From positions 1 to 6,831 of the IMG/VR virus record IMGVR_UViG_2565956635_000006: a stretch of DNA of 6,831 nucleotides. One strand, 5' to 3'. Origin of the DNA: a virus. Its lineage: Duplodnaviria; Heunggongvirae; Uroviricota; Caudoviricetes. The notes beneath the pieces are model-generated. The model was given only the letters and a program-made list of their open reading frames with translations. It was not told the DNA's origin and did no database searches. This document shows positions 1 through 6,831 of this stretch, piece by piece; position 1 is the stretch's first letter, and each line of letters opens with the position of its first letter. A program made the translations under genes and the position numbers.

Positions 1-516
1 ATGAAATTTAAAAAATGTCTTCTGCCTGTGGCAATGTTAGCGTCATTCACTCTGGCAGGATGCCAGTCAAATGCTGATGATCATGCTGCCGATGTTTATC
101 AAACCGATCAACTGAATACCAAACAAGAAACTAAAACCGTTAATATTATTTCCATTCTTCCCGCAAAAGTTGCCGTAGACAACGCCCAAAATAAACGGAA
201 CGCACAAGCCTTCGGCGCGCTTATTGGCGCTGTCGCTGGCGGTGTTATCGGCCACAACGTCGGGTCTGGCAGCAATTCCGGAACGACGGCAGGTGCAGTT
301 GGCGGCGGAGCTGTAGGCGCGGCAGCGGGTTCGATGGTGAATGATAAAACCTTAGTGGAAGGTGTTTCTTTAACATATAAGGAAGGCACCAAAGTGTATA
401 CCTCCACCCAGGTGGGTAAAGAGTGCCAGTTTACGACAGGTTTAGCCGTTGTTATTACCACGACGTATAACGAAACGCGTATTCAGCCAAATACCAAATG
501 TCCTGAAAAGAGCTAA
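1..516 (+). CDS. Outer-membrane lipoprotein with glycine-zipper domain (YcfJ / Rick_17kDa_Anti-like), 171 aa
   Basis: ATG at window position 1, stop TAA 514-516. Signal peptide MKFKKCLLPVAMLASFTLAG|C with lipobox LAGC; residue after the Cys is Gln, not Asp, so outer-membrane sorting is expected. Gly/Ala zipper GALIGAVAGGVIGHNVGSGS...GAVGGGAVGAAAGS resembles the GAVAGGVIGH motif of YcfJ-type lipoproteins (from memory). Upstream RBS lies outside the window. Confidence 0.7.
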   Translation: MKFKKCLLPVAMLASFTLAGCQSNADDHAADVYQTDQLNTKQETKTVNIISILPAKVAVDNAQNKRNAQAFGALIGAVAGGVIGHNVGSGSNSGTTAGAVGGGAVGAAAGSMVNDKTLVEGVSLTYKEGTKVYTSTQVGKECQFTTGLAVVITTTYNETRIQPNTKCPEKS

Positions 517-531
517 TAATCAGGAGGAGTC

Positions 532-1071
532 ATGAAGAAAGTTTTTCTTTGCGCCATCTTAGCCTCCTTAAGCTATCCGGCTATCGCCTCATCATTGCAG
601 GATCAACTCTCGGCTGTCGCAGAAGCGGAACAGCAAGGTAAAAATGAAGAGCAAAGGCAGCATGACGAATGGGTCGCGGAGCGCAACAGGGAAATCCAGC
701 AAGAGAAGCAACGTCGCGCAAACGCCCAGGCCGCGGCTAATAAAAGAGCGGCAACGGCAGCGGCGAATAAGAAAGCTCGTCAGGATAAACTGGACGCCGA
801 AGCCACTGCGGACAAAAAACGCGATCAAAGTTATGAAGATGAGCTACGCAGCTTAGAGATTCAGAAACAAAAACTGGCGCTGGCGAAAGAAGAAGCCCGC
901 GTCAAGCGCGAAAACGAATTTATCGATCAGGAACTGAAGCACAAAGCTGCGCAAACCGATGTGGTGCAATCTGAAGCTGACGCAAACAGAAATATGACTG
1001 AAGGCGGTCGCGATCTGATGAAAAGCGTGGGTAAAGCAGAAGAGAACAAATCGGACAGCTGGTTTAACTAA
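532..1071 (+). CDS. Secreted/periplasmic coiled-coil protein, Ala/Lys/Glu/Gln-rich (TolA domain II-like composition), 179 aa
   Basis: Consensus SD AGGAGG at 522-527, 4 nt before ATG 532; only 15 nt after the upstream stop, so it is operonic with the lipoprotein. Sec signal peptide MKKVFLCAILASLSYPAIA|SS (AxA cleavage site). The mature part is highly charged with AAANK(R/K)A-type repeats. Family unknown. Confidence 0.65.
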   Translation: MKKVFLCAILASLSYPAIASSLQDQLSAVAEAEQQGKNEEQRQHDEWVAERNREIQQEKQRRANAQAAANKRAATAAANKKARQDKLDAEATADKKRDQSYEDELRSLEIQKQKLALAKEEARVKRENEFIDQELKHKAAQTDVVQSEADANRNMTEGGRDLMKSVGKAEENKSDSWFN

Positions 1072-1109
1072 GCGATGTCAGTAACTTCAAGCCTATGATT
1101 CGTGAGTAT

Positions 1110-1140
1110 AAAAAACCCTCTGTAGTAACAGAGGGTTTTG
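1110..1140. terminator. Bidirectional rho-independent terminator shared by the convergent plus-strand operon and the minus-strand lysis operon
   Basis: Perfect inverted repeat aaaaccctctg (1112-1122) / cagagggtttt (1129-1139) with a 6-nt loop tagtaa. The GC core stem CCCTCTG/CAGAGGG is flanked by an A-tract on one side and a T-tract on the other, so the hairpin is followed by a U-run in both transcripts (UUUUG on plus, UUUUUUAUAC on minus). It lies 41 nt after the stop of the 532-1071 gene and 128 nt after the Rz stop. Confidence 0.65.
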
Positions 1141-1266
1141 TTCATTCATAGTGCAGGGTTCAAATCATTCCCACTCAATTATTTACGACATACATAACCA
1201 ATTGACTGATAACAACTTTCTGCAGCCTGATTTTCACCGTACCGTTTTATATACCGTCACCAAAAA

Positions 1267-1764
1267 TCAGTACCACGATTTTTGCTTCTTCAGTGAATCG
1301 TATTGCTGTTCGCAGGATTCTCCTGCAATCCGATACTTTTCAGCCTCAGCTGCTGTTGCGTTGTAAACTCGGTTGCTTTCTTCAAGCATGTCGGCGAGCA
1401 CACCGATGACCTTGCTGGCTGGCGTGCCAGTGGGGAAAGATCCGGTATAGTGTTCGGCGAGTCGCTTGGTTTTGTCAAGCTCGGCGCGCAGGCTGTCAGC
1501 AGCGGCATTAGCATGCTCAGCATCAACACGCGCCACATCGATACGGGATTGTGCTTCACGTTCAATTTGTGTTTTCTCCTGATCACGTTGTGACCTGGCC
1601 TTATCATCAGCCTGTTTCTGATCTTCCTGTGCCTGCGCATACCCGGCGTCGTACTGACGACTGCCGTGTGCATTCCAGGCTACAACTCCTGATATGACCA
1701 GAACAGCAAGCATCGCCATGATAACCAACTGTTTCCTGTATGCTTTTGCGAATGCCCAGATCAT
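1267..1764 (-). CDS. Rz-like i-spanin (inner-membrane spanin subunit), 165 aa
   Basis: ATG at 1764-1762 overlaps the endolysin stop TGA at 1763-1761 (ATGA overlap, translational coupling). Type II membrane topology: basic N-terminus [12 protein letters not shown] followed by one [20 protein letters not shown], then a long charged coiled-coil periplasmic domain rich in Q/E/R/D/A. Last gene of the lysis cassette and carries an embedded lipoprotein ORF. Confidence 0.75.
1290..1538 (-). CDS. Rz1-like o-spanin (outer-membrane lipoprotein) embedded in the +1 frame of the i-spanin gene, about 82 aa precursor
   Basis: Fully embedded alternative frame inside 1267-1764. Encodes [16 protein letters not shown]|C with lipobox LTAC followed by a Pro/Ser-rich mature region ([24 protein letters not shown]...) with extra Cys, the hallmark of Rz1 proteins. 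Start is uncertain: in-frame ATGs at 1538, 1523, 1514 and 1508, none with a strong SD. Confidence 0.5.
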   Translation of the reverse strand: MWRVLMLSMLMPLLTACAPSLTKPSDSPNTIPDLSPLARQPARSSVCSPTCLKKATEFTTQQQLRLKSIGLQENPANSNTIH

Positions 1765-2390
1765 ACCGCCAGCACCTTACTGGCAGTGATGTATCGCGCG
1801 CGCCGGTCATCAATGCCGTTCCGGCCACCATTGATAAGCAGAGTTACACGTGCAATATCTCCGGTATACTTCATGCAGCCTTTGCTGGAGAAGAACCACG
1901 CCGCGCTACGAGCCGCGTATTCGTCCTGCGCCAGCAGTTCAGGACTCTCCAGCAGGTCAACCTTAAGACCGTTTCCACAGTCACGATAGTTATTCAAACC
2001 GGTAATCTGGATAAGTCCGCGCCCACGGTAGTTCCAGCCATCGCCAGGAGCATTGTTACCCATGCGTTTGCTGTACACCAGATTGGCAATCGCTCTCTGG
2101 CGCTCAGGTGGCAATGGTGGTTCGCCTGCGCGTCGCCCCAATGCGTTGGCCTGTCCCTGAGTGAGACGCCCAGCCCGAACAAAGTTAGCCAGTCCGCTGA
2201 CGCTGTAGTTGAAATTTTCCTGCAACCGGGTGAAACCTCCAGACTCATGCCCGACCTGAGCAATAAACATTGCCTGATCTTCTGGTTTGCTGATACCAAA
2301 CTCTTTCATCGCAGAAGTTATATGCGAGAACCAGCGTGCGGCCAGCGCCTCGCTAATACCAGCAGCTCGCTGGAATTGTTTAATCTCCAT
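1761..2390 (-). CDS. Phage endolysin, glycoside hydrolase family 19 (chitinase-fold lysozyme), 209 aa
   Basis: Start ATG at 2390-2388 preceded by SD GAGGT (minus-strand context TCGAGGTCTAAACATGGAG). The 264-aa ORF in the track is a 5' over-extension; the upstream part overlaps the holin-like gene in another frame. Protein begins [20 protein letters not shown] and contains [10 protein letters not shown]...LQENFNYS with two Glu (positions 49 and 58) plus [12 protein letters not shown], consistent with GH19 phage endolysins of the SPN1S type (from memory). GC is about 58-67% in hand-counted 60-nt blocks. Confidence 0.85.
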
Positions 2391-2688
2391 GTTTAGACCT
2401 CGATACTTTGAAAATTTGAACGACGTTACCGCGCGTTTTAATAACCGCAGCGAGCATGACAGCGTTGATAATGACCTCAGATAAATCCACAGCCATTGGC
2501 GTGCGGAACCAGATTGCATAGGCGACACGAACAGGAATACTGGCCGCAGCAACAATCAGGAAATAAGCAAGCCATCCTCCCCACCTTCGGTGTTGAGAGC
2601 CGTTACGCCGGAATGTGACAACGCGAATTGCTATGCCAGTGCAAATAACTGCATTGGTGATAAGCAAAAAAAACTCATGCGTTACCAT
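2380..2688 (-). CDS. Holin-like / lysis-associated small membrane protein, 102 aa
   Basis: ATG at 2688-2686 with SD GGAG 8 nt upstream (GGGGAGAAAAGACGATG). Overlaps the upstream gene by 14 nt and the endolysin start by 11 nt. Two hydrophobic segments ([19 protein letters not shown]; [23 protein letters not shown]) separated by a basic loop, and a charged C-terminal tail KVSRSKHGD, which is holin-like architecture. Position immediately 5' of the endolysin. Confidence 0.6.
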
Positions 2689-3079
2689 CGTCTTTTCTCC
2701 CCGGAATTAACTCGCGTGGATTATCGGAACGGTGATAGAGCCATATACCAATACGCACAGCGACAATTGCTGACACGAATGCGCCTGCAGAGAAAACAAT
2801 CCCTTTTTCAAAAGAGTCCTGCGTGATGGTAGGGATCAGGCTGGCTATGCCGATAAGAATTGATGCTGCTGGTTTGTAAAAGAGAAGGCCGCAAAGAAAG
2901 CTGAGCATCGACAGGAGCACCCGGCGACGGATGGGGTACTCTACTGCAGAGGTAACAAAAATTACCGCTCCAGCCAAAGCACCCAAAGCAACCTCAGGAG
3001 GAACTCCTGCTATCACCGCCGCCAGAGAACTCATGCTAAGCCACTGATTTAAAGTTTCACTGGTTAGTTGAGCTGACAT
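2675..3079 (-). CDS. Holin-like membrane protein (3-4 predicted TM segments, charged C-terminal tail), 134 aa
   Basis: Start taken at ATG 3079-3077 (MSAQLTSETLNQ...) with upstream GGTGG 5 nt away; the track's start at 3088 is a GTG three codons upstream in the same frame. Hydrophobic segments LAAVIAGVPPEVALGALAGAVIFV, LLSMLSFLCGLLFY, ILIGIASLIPTI, AGAFVSAIVAVRIGIWLY, then charged tail [19 protein letters not shown]. First gene of the tightly overlapped lysis cassette. Confidence 0.55.
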   Translation of the reverse strand: MSAQLTSETLNQWLSMSSLAAVIAGVPPEVALGALAGAVIFVTSAVEYPIRRRVLLSMLSFLCGLLFYKPAASILIGIASLIPTITQDSFEKGIVFSAGAFVSAIVAVRIGIWLYHRSDNPRELIPGRKDDGNA

Positions 3080-3253
3080 GTTTTCCACCGTTTATATGCA
3101 TAACAACCTCCTGAACAGTAAAGCATTACGCATGATAAACCATTTATGGTTTTTTGTTACTTTAACATCGTCAATTCCCTGTTTTTCATGCCGAGAATAA
3201 AGCTCACCTTTTACATGACTCTGAAGAAACAAACAGTGAAGATCAGGTTGAAT

Positions 3254-3276
3254 ACCGCACCATTTAATGGCGCGGT
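3254..3276 (-). other. Stem-loop just after the stop of the small membrane gene (possible weak terminator or RNA stability element)
   Basis: Minus-strand ACCGCGCCAT-TAA-ATGGTGCGGT: 10-bp stem with one G-U wobble and a 3-nt loop, 6 nt after the TGA at 3284-3282. No U-tract follows, so it is not a canonical intrinsic terminator. Confidence 0.25.
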
Positions 3277-3281
3277 AGCAG

Positions 3282-3566
3282 TCAAATAGAGAAATAAACA
3301 CAAAAACAAAAAACAACAGGAACAGCAAAATCCAACAGACTTCCCACATCCCACACGCGTGGATCAAAACCTCCCCACCACGGCATGTTGATGCGTTTCC
3401 CTTTCCCAAACTTTTCTATCCAGCGATATTCTGCCTGGGTGTGTTCACGCGCAATGAAGAACGTACAACCGGCTATCGCACCGTAAGCCCAGTTTCCGGT
3501 AGAAAGGCCAACCAGTATCTGCGCAATAACCGCGCATACTGCATGTGTTATTGGTGTTGTATCCAT
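3282..3566 (-). CDS. Small integral membrane protein of unknown function (2 predicted TM), 94 aa, immediately downstream of the tailspike
   Basis: Start ATG 3566-3564 with SD AAGGA (AAAAGGATAAAAATATG); the track's start at 3602 abuts the tailspike stop and lacks an SD. TM1 AVCAVIAQILVGLSTGNWAYGAIAGCTFFIA, basic/aromatic loop REHTQAEYRWIEKFGKGKRINMPWWGGFDPRVW, TM2 LLDFAVPVVFCFCVYFSI. A weak hairpin follows the stop (see 3254-3276). Confidence 0.5.
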   Translation of the reverse strand: MDTTPITHAVCAVIAQILVGLSTGNWAYGAIAGCTFFIAREHTQAEYRWIEKFGKGKRINMPWWGGFDPRVWDVGSLLDFAVPVVFCFCVYFSI

Positions 3567-3602
3567 ATTTTTATCCTTTTTTAATTTAGCAAATTGATAC
3601 AA

Positions 3603-6377
3603 TTACACTCCTGATACTTCAATAGATAGTTGAATCTTATTTGGCATCTTGTTGCTTAAATATATGGTTGCAAAGTCAAACGAAATATTTAAGTTATTTT
3701 CATCACCATCATTATCTGAAAGAACTCCGGTTTTCAATACAACATTTTGCTTATTAATTTCTTTTAAAGGAGAAAAATCAGATCGGTCACCACGATGAAT
3801 AATAACACCAACTGCAATTACCCCATGAATATCAAGTATGTCGTGCATATCAAGGCGAACACATGGTACGTATCCACCAACAAGGATACTTGTAGATTTG
3901 TTGGCTTCAAGTGTTATTAGATATTTTCCGTCTGGTTGAACTATTGTTCCTGCTATTCCATCTGGCGTGTTGAACATACCGCAGTATCTGTATCCTGCTC
4001 CAACAGGAACAATTCTGTTACCGCCAAGATCATGGAAATTTCGAACAATTATTGCACCAGGAACAGATGAATAAACCATTACTGCCTCTGTTTGCCCTGA
4101 TACAGAGTCTGATGTTTCTGGGTTCGCCATGCATAAATTACCACCAAAATAAATATTTTGGATTAGAGGGGTGAGGCCATCATTAACCTCAAAACGTAAA
4201 AAGCCCTTGAGAACAGTCCTTGCGGTATTATTCTTAATAACAACAGGAAGTTCTTTATAGTAAGAGTTTCTGTCTGTCTGTGCCAGAGTTGTTTCAATAA
4301 AAACAAGAGGTCTGTGATTACGTTGAGTTGCATTCACAGGTTTGTACCTCAAGTTGTATGGCAAAGACATCTCAGTAAAACCATCAATATAATTACAGTT
4401 CTGAATCGTGAACCCACCACCACTATATCTTACAAAAAAAGGAGCCGGGCCGCTAAATCCCCTGACGTTCATTCCATCATACACTTCATTTAATCCGCGT
4501 ATTACACCAGCATAATACAAATTGACTGAATTGCCGCCTGTAAAAGTTGTTTCGTATGATGGGCCGTGTCCACCGCAACATGAATTTCTTGTATCGCCAT
4601 CAGGGAAAAATTTAACTCCATCATATGCAGTTCCACCACCCATCATCGTTGGATTTATAATGTTATTATACAGTGATACCATTTGAGTCCCGCTTACATC
4701 AAGCCCCCTCCTGCAAGCAAATGCTGTCATATCCACGACTGTGCAATAGCTGCTATTGTATATTTCAACACCATAACCAGTGCCGTTTGTTAAATCATAT
4801 GCACGGTTTGAGTATTCAATATATGGTTCTATTATTTTCGTTCTGTAGCTTGACTCAAGAAAAATTCCAGTTTCTGAAAAGCCGATTAGTTTTATTCCTT
4901 CTATATGCATATCAACAGCGCCATCTATCACAAGACCACGGAACCCCAAATCACCAGGAGATGCGTTCTGCGTGACAGGTCTTTCAAAATTGAAATCACC
5001 GACAATTCTGCCGTAGCATGGTTTTCTTTTATATATATTTGCCTTTCTTGTGATTTTAAACTCGTCTCCAACAGATGGTTTAAACGGGAATGGTCCCTGA
5101 GCATATTCAAATTTTGCTGTTTTAGTGTCGTAATCCCAATGAGTTATGTATCTTGATATTCCGGCGTTAGCTCCGGTGACACCTGTTACTTTTACCTGAT
5201 TGTATTGTTTTGTTAATGTTGCATCATTACCAAATGAGAATTCACCTCCGGATACAGATGCTGTTACGGTCGTTGAGTAATCATTGCTCGCAGAGTAGAA
5301 AAAATAAAATGCACCTGATATCTCCGCTTTTTTTGTTGCATTATCAAAAGCAGTAACAACATGCATTTCACCTTCACAAGCCTGTCCTCTATTATCTGTC
5401 TGAATTAAGCGATTGCCATGAATCATAATTATATCGCCTGCATCAACAGAATATGCTGAGTTAATTGATATTGATGTGTCACCAGGATTTATTGTTGAAT
5501 TATAGTCAATTGGCGTGGCATCTCCACCTTCGAGTCTTATGAAATAATCATCAATCCAGTTTGGACCAAGAGGCTCTTTTGCGGTTGACTTTAAGACAAC
5601 CTTGCCATCAGCTACCCAGTCATAGTTATAATTATCCCCGCCGCATTTTATGCGGCTAATCAAATACACACCAGAATCCCACTTCAGGCGTTTTCCGTTA
5701 GATGCGCAGTAAATGATGGCATTTGTTATTGCGTCTGTATCGTCAGTAATGCCATCCCCTTTTGCACCAAAATCGCGAACATTGACGATATCCCGCATCT
5801 TATCCTGGAACGTTCGATATACTGCCCCAAAACCATACTGAATAAACCAACCAAAACCACCAACAACCCCGGCGATTGCAGCATCGACATAATTACGCAT
5901 TGAGCGATTATTTACAGCATCCTGCTCAAGTGATGGATCTGCAAGGTTAGAAATTCTGTTTTGCTTTGCATCGTAATATTTTGCAAGCAAAGATGGTTTC
6001 ATCAATGCACGTCTGAACCACCCAAAACATCGCTGGATCAGCATCGTCAGGTAGTCAAATGCATCCTCATGAACTTCGGGGAAAAATTTTCCCTGATTGC
6101 GAAGATCAGTCTCCTGCACCACATCAAGCACACGCTCTATCGTGATTTTCCAGCCAGCAGCAAGCGGCGACGGAAGAACAACAGAACCGCCACTATAAGT
6201 GCCCGCCCCAGTTACCGTATAACCGGTATCCAGAACCAATTCTGTTACGTTACCGTTCAGGTCAGACACCTGAACAACCAGGTCTGTTTTTTTGAAAATG
6301 CGGAAGGTATACGGAAATGATGTCGTAACGCCGTTACCTGTGTATTCGTTGTGGTCAACTTCGGTTGAGACCGTCAT
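3603..6377 (-). CDS. Phage tailspike protein: conserved N-terminal particle-binding domain plus right-handed beta-helix (pectate-lyase-like) polysaccharide depolymerase / receptor-binding domain, 924 aa
   Basis: ATG 6377-6375 with SD GGAG 7 nt upstream (TCTGGAGATTTAACATG); stop TAA 3605-3603. N-terminus MTVSTEVDHNEYTGNGVTTSFPYTFRIFKKTDLVVQV...ETDLRNQGKFFPEVHEDAFDYLTMLIQR matches, from memory, the conserved head-binding domain of epsilon15/phiV10-type tailspikes. Residues about 199-222 (NVRDFGAKGDGITDDTDAITNAI) are the classic pectate-lyase-superfamily motif. Marked GC drop in the C-terminal two thirds. Confidence 0.9.
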   Translation of the reverse strand: MTVSTEVDHNEYTGNGVTTSFPYTFRIFKKTDLVVQVSDLNGNVTELVLDTGYTVTGAGTYSGGSVVLPSPLAAGWKITIERVLDVVQETDLRNQGKFFPEVHEDAFDYLTMLIQRCFGWFRRALMKPSLLAKYYDAKQNRISNLADPSLEQDAVNNRSMRNYVDAAIAGVVGGFGWFIQYGFGAVYRTFQDKMRDIVNVRDFGAKGDGITDDTDAITNAIIYCASNGKRLKWDSGVYLISRIKCGGDNYNYDWVADGKVVLKSTAKEPLGPNWIDDYFIRLEGGDATPIDYNSTINPGDTSISINSAYSVDAGDIIMIHGNRLIQTDNRGQACEGEMHVVTAFDNATKKAEISGAFYFFYSASNDYSTTVTASVSGGEFSFGNDATLTKQYNQVKVTGVTGANAGISRYITHWDYDTKTAKFEYAQGPFPFKPSVGDEFKITRKANIYKRKPCYGRIVGDFNFERPVTQNASPGDLGFRGLVIDGAVDMHIEGIKLIGFSETGIFLESSYRTKIIEPYIEYSNRAYDLTNGTGYGVEIYNSSYCTVVDMTAFACRRGLDVSGTQMVSLYNNIINPTMMGGGTAYDGVKFFPDGDTRNSCCGGHGPSYETTFTGGNSVNLYYAGVIRGLNEVYDGMNVRGFSGPAPFFVRYSGGGFTIQNCNYIDGFTEMSLPYNLRYKPVNATQRNHRPLVFIETTLAQTDRNSYYKELPVVIKNNTARTVLKGFLRFEVNDGLTPLIQNIYFGGNLCMANPETSDSVSGQTEAVMVYSSVPGAIIVRNFHDLGGNRIVPVGAGYRYCGMFNTPDGIAGTIVQPDGKYLITLEANKSTSILVGGYVPCVRLDMHDILDIHGVIAVGVIIHRGDRSDFSPLKEINKQNVVLKTGVLSDNDGDENNLNISFDFATIYLSNKMPNKIQLSIEVSGV

Positions 6378-6480
6378 GTTAAATCTCCAGATAGTCGCAG
6401 CACCCGTTGCGCCGCATATCTGGTTATTCTATTACCTGAAAAACCACATATGGATAGAAATACTGTGAATATAAATAGAT

Positions 6481-6497
6481 ATTACCTTTTAGGTAAT
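6481..6497. promoter_or_regulatory. Perfect palindrome ATTACCT-TTT-AGGTAAT, candidate operator for a phage-encoded dimeric regulator
   Basis: 7-bp inverted arms with a 3-nt spacer in the divergent intergenic region. The half-site ATTACCT recurs at 6431-6437. Function is inferred from symmetry only. Confidence 0.3.
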
Positions 6498-6533
6498 TTG
6501 CAAAACGTGCTGGATAGCAAACAAATTATTTGA

Positions 6534-6553
6534 TACTGTATAAATATACAGTT
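6534..6553. promoter_or_regulatory. LexA binding site (SOS box) overlapping the promoter region of the downstream plus-strand small ORF
   Basis: TACTGTATAAATATACAGTT is CTGT-N8-ACAG with an AT-rich spacer and matches the E. coli consensus TACTGTATATATATACAGTA at 18 of 20 positions. It lies 20 bp upstream of ATG 6574 and overlaps a TATAAAT -10-like hexamer (6539-6545), with TTGATA (6530-6535) just upstream. Confidence 0.7.
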
Positions 6554-6573
6554 ATTGCATGGAGAAGATTAAG

Positions 6574-6831
6574 ATGCAGCAGTATCACTATCCACTGGAA
6601 GACGGATTTACCGAAAGGATTCACACGCCGGGAGGCGTCAAGTCACTGGTGGAGGGATCGCACTTGATGAAATTACTCCGGGATCTCGATAAGGATGGAT
6701 TTAATGTCGATGGCCCACTTGCCGAACTGACTGCACTGATTAACTACGTCACCAGCTCACAGATGTCTATGCAGGATCTGCAAACACATCTCGACTATTG
6801 TGCCGAACAATTACGAAAACAAACCACATAA
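6574..6831 (+). CDS. Small acidic soluble protein of unknown family, predicted SOS/LexA-regulated (85 aa; 90 aa if started at 6559)
   Basis: SD GGAG at 6561-6564, 9 nt before ATG 6574; the alternative ATG at 6559 has no SD. Stop TAA 6829-6831 is the last triplet of the window. No TM or signal peptide; rich in D/E. I recognise no family; the C-terminal ...LRKQTT weakly echoes P22 Mnt (...LYKKTT) but the N-terminus lacks a ribbon-helix-helix motif. Confidence 0.55.
   Translation: MQQYHYPLEDGFTERIHTPGGVKSLVEGSHLMKLLRDLDKDGFNVDGPLAELTALINYVTSSQMSMQDLQTHLDYCAEQLRKQTT

Follow-up and report, generated by a model that had tools for sequence, protein, structure and literature searches.

Holin expression sets the time of lysis, and hence the burst size, of a phage, and leaky expression from a prophage kills the host. 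Phage lambda controls lysis timing via the balance between holin and antiholin at its S gene, and to our knowledge few cis-acting controls of holin translation have been described besides the lambda sdi and dual-start arrangement. This arrangement combines a stem-loop, sdi, with a dual start that gives S107 and S105 (reviewed in PMC9636201). Here we analyze the leader of the lysis cassette in a stretch of 6,831 nt (positions 1 to 6,831 of IMG/VR record IMGVR_UViG_2565956635_000006; hereafter the window), which is the right end of an E. coli prophage of the epsilon15/phiV10 type (Uetakevirus). Two overlapping genes for membrane proteins of 134 and 102 aa precede a GH19 endolysin gene there, and a strong Shine-Dalgarno sequence (SD) ahead of them serves a short upstream open reading frame (uORF) whose start codon lies, like the SD itself, within a conserved predicted hairpin, hp1.

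Comparable elements are known from other systems. The lysis gene L of the RNA phages MS2 and fr is expressed by ribosomes that terminate nearby and then reinitiate. For the IS10 (Tn10) transposase, Davis, Simons and Kleckner reportedly described in 1985 a fold-back inhibition in which only transcripts coming from outside fold and are silenced. With respect to the gene pair itself, phage N4 has two adjacent small membrane proteins beside its endolysin, the gp63 pinholin and gp62, a non-essential lysis regulator with antiholin-like and holin-like behaviour; they differ from the pair studied here in that they are described as having one and two transmembrane domains (TMDs) and as accompanying a signal-arrest-release (SAR) endolysin, where the endolysin of the window is soluble (PMC12642591). 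A pair with the same gene order, overlap and families as in the window has been named 'putative antiholin and holin' in the Burkholderia P2-like phages KS5, KS14 and KL3 and in AP3, a label based on position and TMDs only (PMC3091744, PMC5247547).

Results

In the window, the consensus AGGAGG is separated by a 5-nt spacer (TTGTT) from the ATG at 3101, and the 14-codon uORF that opens there ends at a TGA (3059-3057) located 20 nt beyond the ATG of the 134-aa gene at 3079 (Table 1). The positions of SD and uORF, and the status of AGGAGG as the only consensus SD ahead of this block, had been correctly described in an earlier, unaided reading of the window (the original prediction); anti-SD duplex energies likewise give the uORF the only strong SD. 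The sole SD-like element of the 134-aa gene is a GGTGG that is near-invariant among relatives.

Homologous leaders were gathered from 93 loci, which comprise 46 distinct variants and represent ten or more genera of enterobacteria (E. coli, Salmonella, Enterobacter, Klebsiella, Citrobacter, Kluyvera, Pseudocitrobacter, Erwinia, Scandinavium and Buttiauxella). An SD followed by an upstream ATG is found at the same place in 39 of the 46 variants (64 of the 93 loci), a retention that, at the level of sequence comparison, goes beyond chance. Across most relatives, the SD of the uORF has a duplex energy of -9 to -12.7 kcal/mol and that of the first gene -5 to -6 kcal/mol, this weak SD being retained in almost all uORF-bearing lineages. 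The uORFs fall into two frame classes, set apart by a one-base deletion in the 3' arm of hp1. In the 22-nt class, to which the window belongs, the stop lies at +20; in the 23-nt class the uORF has 12 codons, and 27 of the 29 variants stop at +13 (nt 14-16 of the gene). The uORF consequently always crosses the weak-SD start of the 134-aa gene and ends 13-20 nt past it. In the 23-nt class the stop position is held even where the first four codons of the gene all differ, as a TAA formed via CTA-A or TTA-A, or as a TGA in Buttiauxella, where Leu5 is replaced by Met. A strong SD 5-9 nt from the uORF start, together with a stop close to a downstream start that has a weak SD, is the anatomy expected of translational coupling.

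Other readings of the start region were considered and rejected. Since the two frame classes encode unrelated peptides, selection is unlikely to act on the peptide itself, and a functional uORF peptide is correspondingly unlikely. An in-frame GTG at 3088 (-9 from ATG 3079) is conserved only as part of GGTGG; a lambda-type dual start at this position lacks an SD at a useful distance, and no positive charge is conserved in the 3-residue extensions that it would add across relatives (MEN, MVT, MVI, MVF and others). A programmed frameshift from the uORF into the gene, which would yield an N-extended antiholin, would need opposite shifts in the two classes, has no conserved slippery site and meets an in-frame TAA at -15.

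As judged by comparing these sequences, the uORF is part of a larger conserved leader, whose hairpin hp1 had escaped the original prediction. Conservation begins abruptly at a palindrome-like motif and remains high through the first codons of the 134-aa gene, while DNA farther upstream varies with genomic context. The leader is conserved better than the protein: in Buttiauxella, the protein has 64% aa identity and the leader is near-identical. In the window, hp1 consists of 16 pairs interrupted by a single bulged C, with further pairs in the apical part, and in epsilon15-type leaders it is a stem of 21-23 bp (-29 kcal/mol in epsilon15). It is the minimum free energy (MFE) hairpin in most of 44 folded leader variants (free energies from -14 to -29 kcal/mol), and weak or absent in four.

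In the alignment of these 44 sequences, pairing is seen in 86.9% of the cells of hp1, compared with 35-50% after sliding of the partner, and its covariation score is 0.297, against 0.229 after shuffling (0 of 500 shuffles reach it). At pair 15-58, 20 sequences have GC and 15 have AU. The pairing effect is present in both the basal and the apical half. The apical half is wholly different in sequence between lineages and is still paired and covarying. The cells that are not Watson-Crick include 197 G.U and 22 A.C. The asymmetry between the two was rejected as proof of RNA pairing, the strand being G+T-rich and the slid controls already at about 4:1. The enrichment of G.U still holds (62% of non-Watson-Crick positions, against about 15-32% in the slid controls, A.C not being enriched) and, since the strand is G+T-rich, provides only moderate evidence for the sense RNA strand. 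Rfam covariance models gave no match in the window at E <= 1.

The SD lies in the apical part of hp1 and the uORF AUG in the middle of its 3' arm. The predicted probability that this AUG is unpaired is 0.0 with the hairpin and 0.4-0.65 without the 5' arm. With both SD and start inside hp1, the uORF therefore needs the hairpin to be absent or opened. The stem also reaches the length required for RNase III (about two turns, at least 20 bp of double-stranded RNA). A role of hp1 as an intrinsic terminator was discarded, as no U run follows it. In epsilon15-type leaders (L002, L003, L087 and others), the loop UCACC resembles the 3' end of 16S rRNA. A pseudoknot between the epsilon15 loop (CACC) and the GGUG before the first gene was likewise discarded, as it is not conserved in the class of the window.

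A second predicted hairpin, hp2, falls in the first codons of the 134-aa gene; its paired share is 86%, compared with 17-41% in slid controls, with little covariation. In the predicted structures, only about 23 nt around the start codon of the gene are left single-stranded between hp1 and hp2. Synonymous codon choice is constrained in this part: Leu5 is always CTA or TTA, Leu14 always CTT and Ser15 always AGY, as opposed to Leu19, for which all six codons occur. The constraint at Leu5, Leu14 and Ser15 fits either the uORF stop or hp2 equally well.

The palindrome-like motif directly upstream of hp1 recurs at operon heads. In epsilon15, CATATRWGGTT has five copies, each in an intergenic region and in the orientation of the gene that follows, preceding gp3, the tailspike gene, gp23, gp40 and gp43; the window has a second copy upstream of its own tailspike gene. 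A -10-like hexamer follows the motif at 6-7 nt in the gp3, tailspike and lysis copies, and the 5' arm of hp1 holds the -10-like hexamers TATCAT/TATTGT and TATGAT. From these occurrences, the palindrome AACCATATATGGTT looks like either a late-promoter element or a site bound by a second phage regulator. Since the epsilon15 genes upstream of the cassette are divergent and the tailspike gene there has a terminator, a separate promoter for the cassette is required within 161 nt. If a late promoter lies at the motif, transcripts would start in the 5' arm or the loop of hp1. A scan of the window with the sigma-70 consensus returned one match, at chance level. At the head of the tailspike gene, the perfect repressor operator, the motif and, 6-7 nt on, the -10-like GTAATAG succeed one another.

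Our preferred reading, to which we give a probability of about 40%, is a structure-gated translational coupling, in which translation of the first lysis gene depends on that of the uORF and the hairpin acts as the gate. From the anatomy, conservation and pairing statistics given above, we infer that the uORF is translated, that the gene is coupled to it, where transcription starts and that lysis timing is affected. The conserved leader of about 75 nt (palindrome, hp1 burying the SD and upstream AUG, and weak GGUGG) would control ribosome entry to the cassette. Alone, the 134-aa gene would initiate poorly, given its weak SD and its start in the 23-nt gap between two predicted hairpins, and it would be served mainly by ribosomes coming from the uORF, which would melt the flanking structure and terminate 13-20 nt past its AUG. 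The uORF would be usable only without the hairpin, owing to a transcript start inside the 5' arm, to RNase III cleavage or to co-transcriptional ribosome loading. In transcripts from such a late promoter, the SD and uORF would be exposed about 20 nt from the 5' end, in a geometry like that of gp3, and the full hairpin would form only in RNA from upstream. Such read-through RNA from upstream genes would be silent, as is reported for IS10 fold-back inhibition. The downstream genes would follow via overlaps between stops and starts, with a separate SD for each gene.

The leaders that depart from the common arrangement include some that favour coupling. The L083 lineage (15 loci) has neither the SD nor the upstream AUG and carries its own AGGAG (-7.4 kcal/mol) before the gene, with the hairpin kept, and in L056 (11 loci) and L035 the hairpin and the upstream ATG have been lost together. 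In L065 it is the hairpin and the upstream SD that are both missing, in L037 the upstream ATG is replaced by ATA, and L042 has ATG-TGA. The original prediction had proposed that the uORF is a coupling device that could set the translation level of the holin and hence lysis timing. This interpretation is partly supported. The conservation of the uORF and its passage across a weak-SD gene start keep coupling plausible; the burial of its SD and start in a hairpin, and the 29 of 93 loci (about 31%) that have no upstream ATG, were not foreseen in it or do not support it.

The latter loci are one of several points that weigh against our preferred reading. The hairpin of L083 persists where there is no uORF, which implies a role beyond gating it. 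Conservation of the uORF stop is equally explicable by hp2 or by amino-acid constraint. The paired cells counted in hp1 are phylogenetically non-independent and the structure was derived from the same sequences, and RNAalifold found no consensus structure in the 44-sequence MAFFT alignment, a null result that we attribute to alignment register because single-sequence folds and explicit pair counts agree on hp1. Without far-upstream sequence, the AUG of the 134-aa gene is predicted to be largely unpaired, with a probability of 0.9 for the window and, for epsilon15, of 0.56; when 110 nt of upstream sequence are included, the probability becomes 0.09 for the window and 0.65 for epsilon15. Distant phages with the same gene pair (see below) have an ordinary SD before the first gene, with neither hairpin nor uORF, and the device is therefore lineage-specific and dispensable. 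Finally, gating depends above all on the assumption that transcripts start inside the 5' arm of hp1. The -10-like hexamer of the window is poor (CGTAAT), the sigma-70 consensus scan of the epsilon15 spacer returned nothing, and in the literature we found neither transcript mapping nor a known transcript 5' end for Uetakeviruses. A more specific form of the reading, in which the leader would be a promoter-selective safety catch, appears rather unlikely to us: mRNAs from the cassette's own palindrome-dependent late promoter would be the only ones to lack the 5' arm, expose the strong SD and load ribosomes via the uORF, and read-through RNA from tail or lysogenic-conversion genes upstream would fold and stay untranslated, perhaps being cut by RNase III.

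The length of hp1, a stem of 20-23 bp rich in AU and GU pairs, also suits a pure RNase III processing or mRNA-stability element, cleavage of which would set the 5' end and half-life of the message; the SD-like run and the ATG would then be kept as parts of the stem and apical region, and the gene would use its own GGUGG. We hold this possible, if on the unlikely side. The epsilon15 record AY150271 carries an 'RNaseIII' feature label on the homologous stretch, L083 keeps the hairpin without SD or upstream AUG, and the AUG columns are conserved no more than the adjacent UAAA columns. Such an element, however, does not account for the purine-rich SD side being kept while the partner side adapts across very different apical sequences, for a uORF that stays open across the gene start in both classes with a conserved stop position, or for the weak first-gene SD that almost all uORF lineages keep, and cleavage is not shown for these phages in the accessible literature.

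The same anatomy, with a uORF that spans the entire region where ribosomes would bind at the first gene and that has a far stronger SD, would also suit a negative uORF, whose ribosomes occlude the 134-aa start and mostly do not reinitiate, leaving less accessory protein and a shifted ratio of the two membrane proteins. The combination of a weak SD, occlusion and a sequestering hairpin would, however, leave almost no product of a strongly conserved gene, and a stop 13-20 nt from the AUG is said to be inside the bacterial reinitiation range; in the scanning model of Adhin and van Duin, reinitiation reportedly works at such stop-start distances. We regard a negative uORF as improbable. Somewhat more doubtful still is a block acting at the DNA level, a late promoter with a regulator-binding palindrome, in which the inverted repeat is a protein-binding or promoter feature and hairpin and uORF are by-products. 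The recurrence of AACCATAWATGGTT at operon heads, the -10-like hexamers in the 5' arm and the start of the conserved block at the palindrome would all be expected of it, but the G.U share of hp1 relative to its slid controls points to sense RNA pairing, the apical stem covaries while its sequence changes completely, and the 20-nt arms far exceed the usual length of operator half-sites.

The coordinates of the two membrane-protein genes and the endolysin gene in the original prediction (ATGs at 3079, 2688 and 2390, ends at 2675 and 2380), and the overlaps of 14 nt (2675-2688) and 11 nt (2380-2390) between them, were all confirmed. In RefSeq, the same 405-nt and 309-nt genes are annotated in the prophage of E. 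coli KC-Dl-1, which is 100% identical, and the start of the 134-aa gene is identical in the RefSeq, epsilon15, Tyrion and Klebsiella records. Both proteins belong to holin families, as had been supposed from their sequences: the 134-aa protein matches Pfam Phage_holin_8 with 46.6 bits (gathering cutoff 26.4) and phrog_198 'holin' (7e-42), and the 102-aa protein matches Phage_holin_3_7 over the full profile with 94.4 bits (cutoff 25.4) and phrog_217 'holin' (9e-36). Neither was matched by NCBIfam. Hydropathy and charge indicate 3-4 hydrophobic segments, an RRR loop and a charged C-terminus in the 134-aa protein. In the 102-aa protein, three hydrophobic segments are predicted by Kyte-Doolittle hydropathy (about 5-26, 37-61 and 64-85), and a loop RRNGSQHRR and a basic C-terminus fit an N-out/C-in topology as judged from hydropathy and charge alone; its gene has its own SD, GGGGAG, ahead of 2688. 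The 102-aa protein is likely the true holin, class-I-like, and the 134-aa protein would be accessory or antiholin-like, the antiholin label deriving from its TMDs and its position beside a DUF754 holin. A cluster of 232-aa proteins (P0067; 21 members from Logan assemblies) has both PF16931 and PF05449. It is an apparent fusion across the 14-nt overlap, which may be due to a frameshift or assembly artefact or may be a natural fusion.

The pair extends well beyond epsilon15-like phages. Relatives of the 102-aa family are present in 229 phage records, and tblastn with the 134-aa protein found 37 records only, nearly all epsilon15-like. In all eight distant phages inspected (Hafnia yong2, Salmonella TR2, Klebsiella KpCHEMY26, Pseudomonas D3, Ralstonia RSA1, Burkholderia Mana, Aeromonas LPM4 and E. 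coli HK639, among which TR2 and KpCHEMY26 are N4-like and RSA1, Mana and LPM4 P2-like), a gene for about 122-134 aa immediately precedes a DUF754 gene, which it overlaps or abuts. With the Burkholderia pairs named above included, the first gene encodes about 113-134 aa and the DUF754 gene about 88-106 aa, directly upstream of the endolysin gene. Multiple TMDs are predicted in both proteins of these pairs, and in the three pairs searched with Pfam the first gene was PF16931 and the second PF05449 (3 of 3). Its presence in very different phages therefore makes the pair an old, mobile two-gene module. The proposal of a holin/antiholin or two-component holin arrangement agrees with the standard reading of this pair in the literature, where the label is itself a prediction, and no experiment on the role of either protein was found in the accessible literature. 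This half of the original prediction is thus already known as annotation, and is ordinary.

The rest of the cassette is canonical. On the minus strand, the tailspike gene is followed by the 94/106-aa membrane ORF, the genes for the 134-aa and 102-aa membrane proteins, the GH19 endolysin gene and the gene of an Rz-like spanin (Table 1). Successive lysis genes overlap, and a separate SD precedes at least the holin gene and the endolysin gene, that of the endolysin gene being a GAGG ahead of 2390. The endolysin has a maximum 19-residue hydropathy of 0.57 and a non-hydrophobic N-terminus; being soluble, it needs a large-hole holin. A soluble endolysin, and an inner-membrane spanin (i-spanin) with an embedded lipoprotein as outer-membrane spanin (o-spanin), make this a holin-endolysin-spanin cassette of the canonical type. 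The 94-aa membrane protein between the tailspike and lysis genes (3282-3566, minus strand; phrog_1443, function not known) has near-identical copies in lambda-like phages (Gally, JEP4, mEp460 and others), and its gene therefore looks like a mobile accessory gene. The GC-rich hairpin behind it is possibly a weak terminator that parts this ORF from the lysis leader, as far as the folding prediction goes; a terminator scan made no call there, the T run being missing.

Over window positions 1200-3700, the prophage of E. coli KC-Dl-1 is 100% identical, and HEMP4, phiv142-3, phiV10, Tyrion, epsilon15 and Klebsiella relatives are 75-98% identical; the latter are all of the epsilon15 type, and of the genus Uetakevirus where classified. 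Parts of this 2.5-kb stretch (lysis cassette and flanks) are matched by 2013 of 5426 complete E. coli genomes. The attachment (att) core of phiV10, epsilon15 and ZX5 is ATTGAGTGGGAATGATT (PMC9782041). An exact copy lies at 1163-1179 of the window, about 90 nt past the end of the Rz gene and beside the terminator hairpin of yfgI (1113-1140), and sets the prophage boundary. The lysis cassette therefore occupies the extreme right end of the prophage and adjoins host yfgI. In KC-Dl-1 (L001 1055-4567), yfgI and the prophage end are separated by about 3.4 kb, with genes for an AAA ATPase, an integrase fragment and a response regulator. The window, compared over 1072-1266, is without it and therefore comes from a different strain or has a different arrangement.

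Table 1. Features of the lysis region and its surroundings. Positions are those of the window, except in the last row.
Feature	Position	Strand	Remarks
Perfect repressor operator ATTACC-N5-GGTAAT	6497-6481	minus	about 29 nt before motif CCATATGTGGTT
Second motif copy CCATATGTGGTT	6452-6442	minus	upstream of tailspike gene
Tailspike, 924 aa	6377-3603	minus	
Membrane ORF, 94/106 aa	3566/3602-3282	minus	
GC-rich hairpin, 11 bp	3253-3277	minus	MFE structure; directly after 94-aa ORF
14-bp palindrome-like motif AACCATAAATGGTT / AACCATAWATGGTT	3138-3151	minus	directly upstream of hp1
Palindrome core CATAAATGGTT	3148-3138	minus	
Leader hairpin hp1, about 20 bp	3090-3140	minus	SD in apical part
hp1 5' arm GUUUAU(C)AUGCGUAAUG	3140-3124	minus	
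hp1 3' arm UGUUAUGCAUAUAAAC	3105-3090	minus	
Consensus SD AGGAGG	3107-3112	minus	serves uORF; anti-SD duplex -11.0 kcal/mol
uORF, 14 codons and stop (MHINGGKHVSSTNQ*)	3057-3101	minus	frame differs from that of 134-aa gene; overlaps its start
Weak SD-like GGTGG	3085-3089	minus	5 nt ahead of ATG 3079; -5.1 kcal/mol with anti-SD
Predicted hairpin hp2	3029-3073	minus	codons 3-17 of 134-aa gene; both uORF stop codons in 5' arm
134-aa membrane protein, Phage_holin_8 (PF16931)	ATG 3079 to TGA 2677-2675	minus	'putative antiholin/holin' partner
102-aa membrane protein, Phage_holin_3_7 (PF05449, formerly DUF754)	ATG 2688 to TAA 2382-2380	minus	
GH19 endolysin	1761-2390	minus	starts at ATG 2390; soluble, no TMD or SAR segment
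Rz-like i-spanin (DUF2514)	1267-1764	minus	one N-terminal TMD
Rz1 o-spanin, embedded in Rz, +1 frame	about 1538-1290	minus	lipobox LLTAC
Motif copies in epsilon15 (L084)	2988, 19940, 24751, 33752, 35953		epsilon15 positions

Discussion

The leader described here would combine variants of known controls, namely lambda sdi, uORF coupling and fold-back inhibition. As in lambda S, an RNA stem-loop lies just upstream of a holin-family gene, involves an SD and would set how ribosomes start; in contrast to lambda S, there is no functional dual start, the regulated start is that of a separate, out-of-frame uORF, and the stem is of about 20 bp. The likeness to IS10 resides in an inverted repeat that would overlap the element's own promoter with its 5' arm and that covers a ribosome-binding site with its 3' arm, with the differences that the sequestered start is here that of the uORF and not of the protein gene, and that a transcript start inside the 5' arm is our inference. 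As proposed here, a lysis gene with a poor start would be served by ribosomes ending at nearby out-of-frame stops, as for gene L of MS2 and fr, except that this is a DNA phage and that a dedicated uORF of 12-14 codons takes the place of the end of a long upstream gene.

A fold-back logic would suit a lethal gene set located downstream of genes that are maybe expressed in lysogens. The two-protein module is common, and its holin and antiholin roles have so far been putative in annotation. The leader would be relevant to the engineering of phages of the epsilon15, phiV10 or SPN1S type and to the use of their lysis cassettes. If our reading is true, the hairpin and uORF leader would represent a second, different solution to the control of holin translation, in a widespread prophage family.

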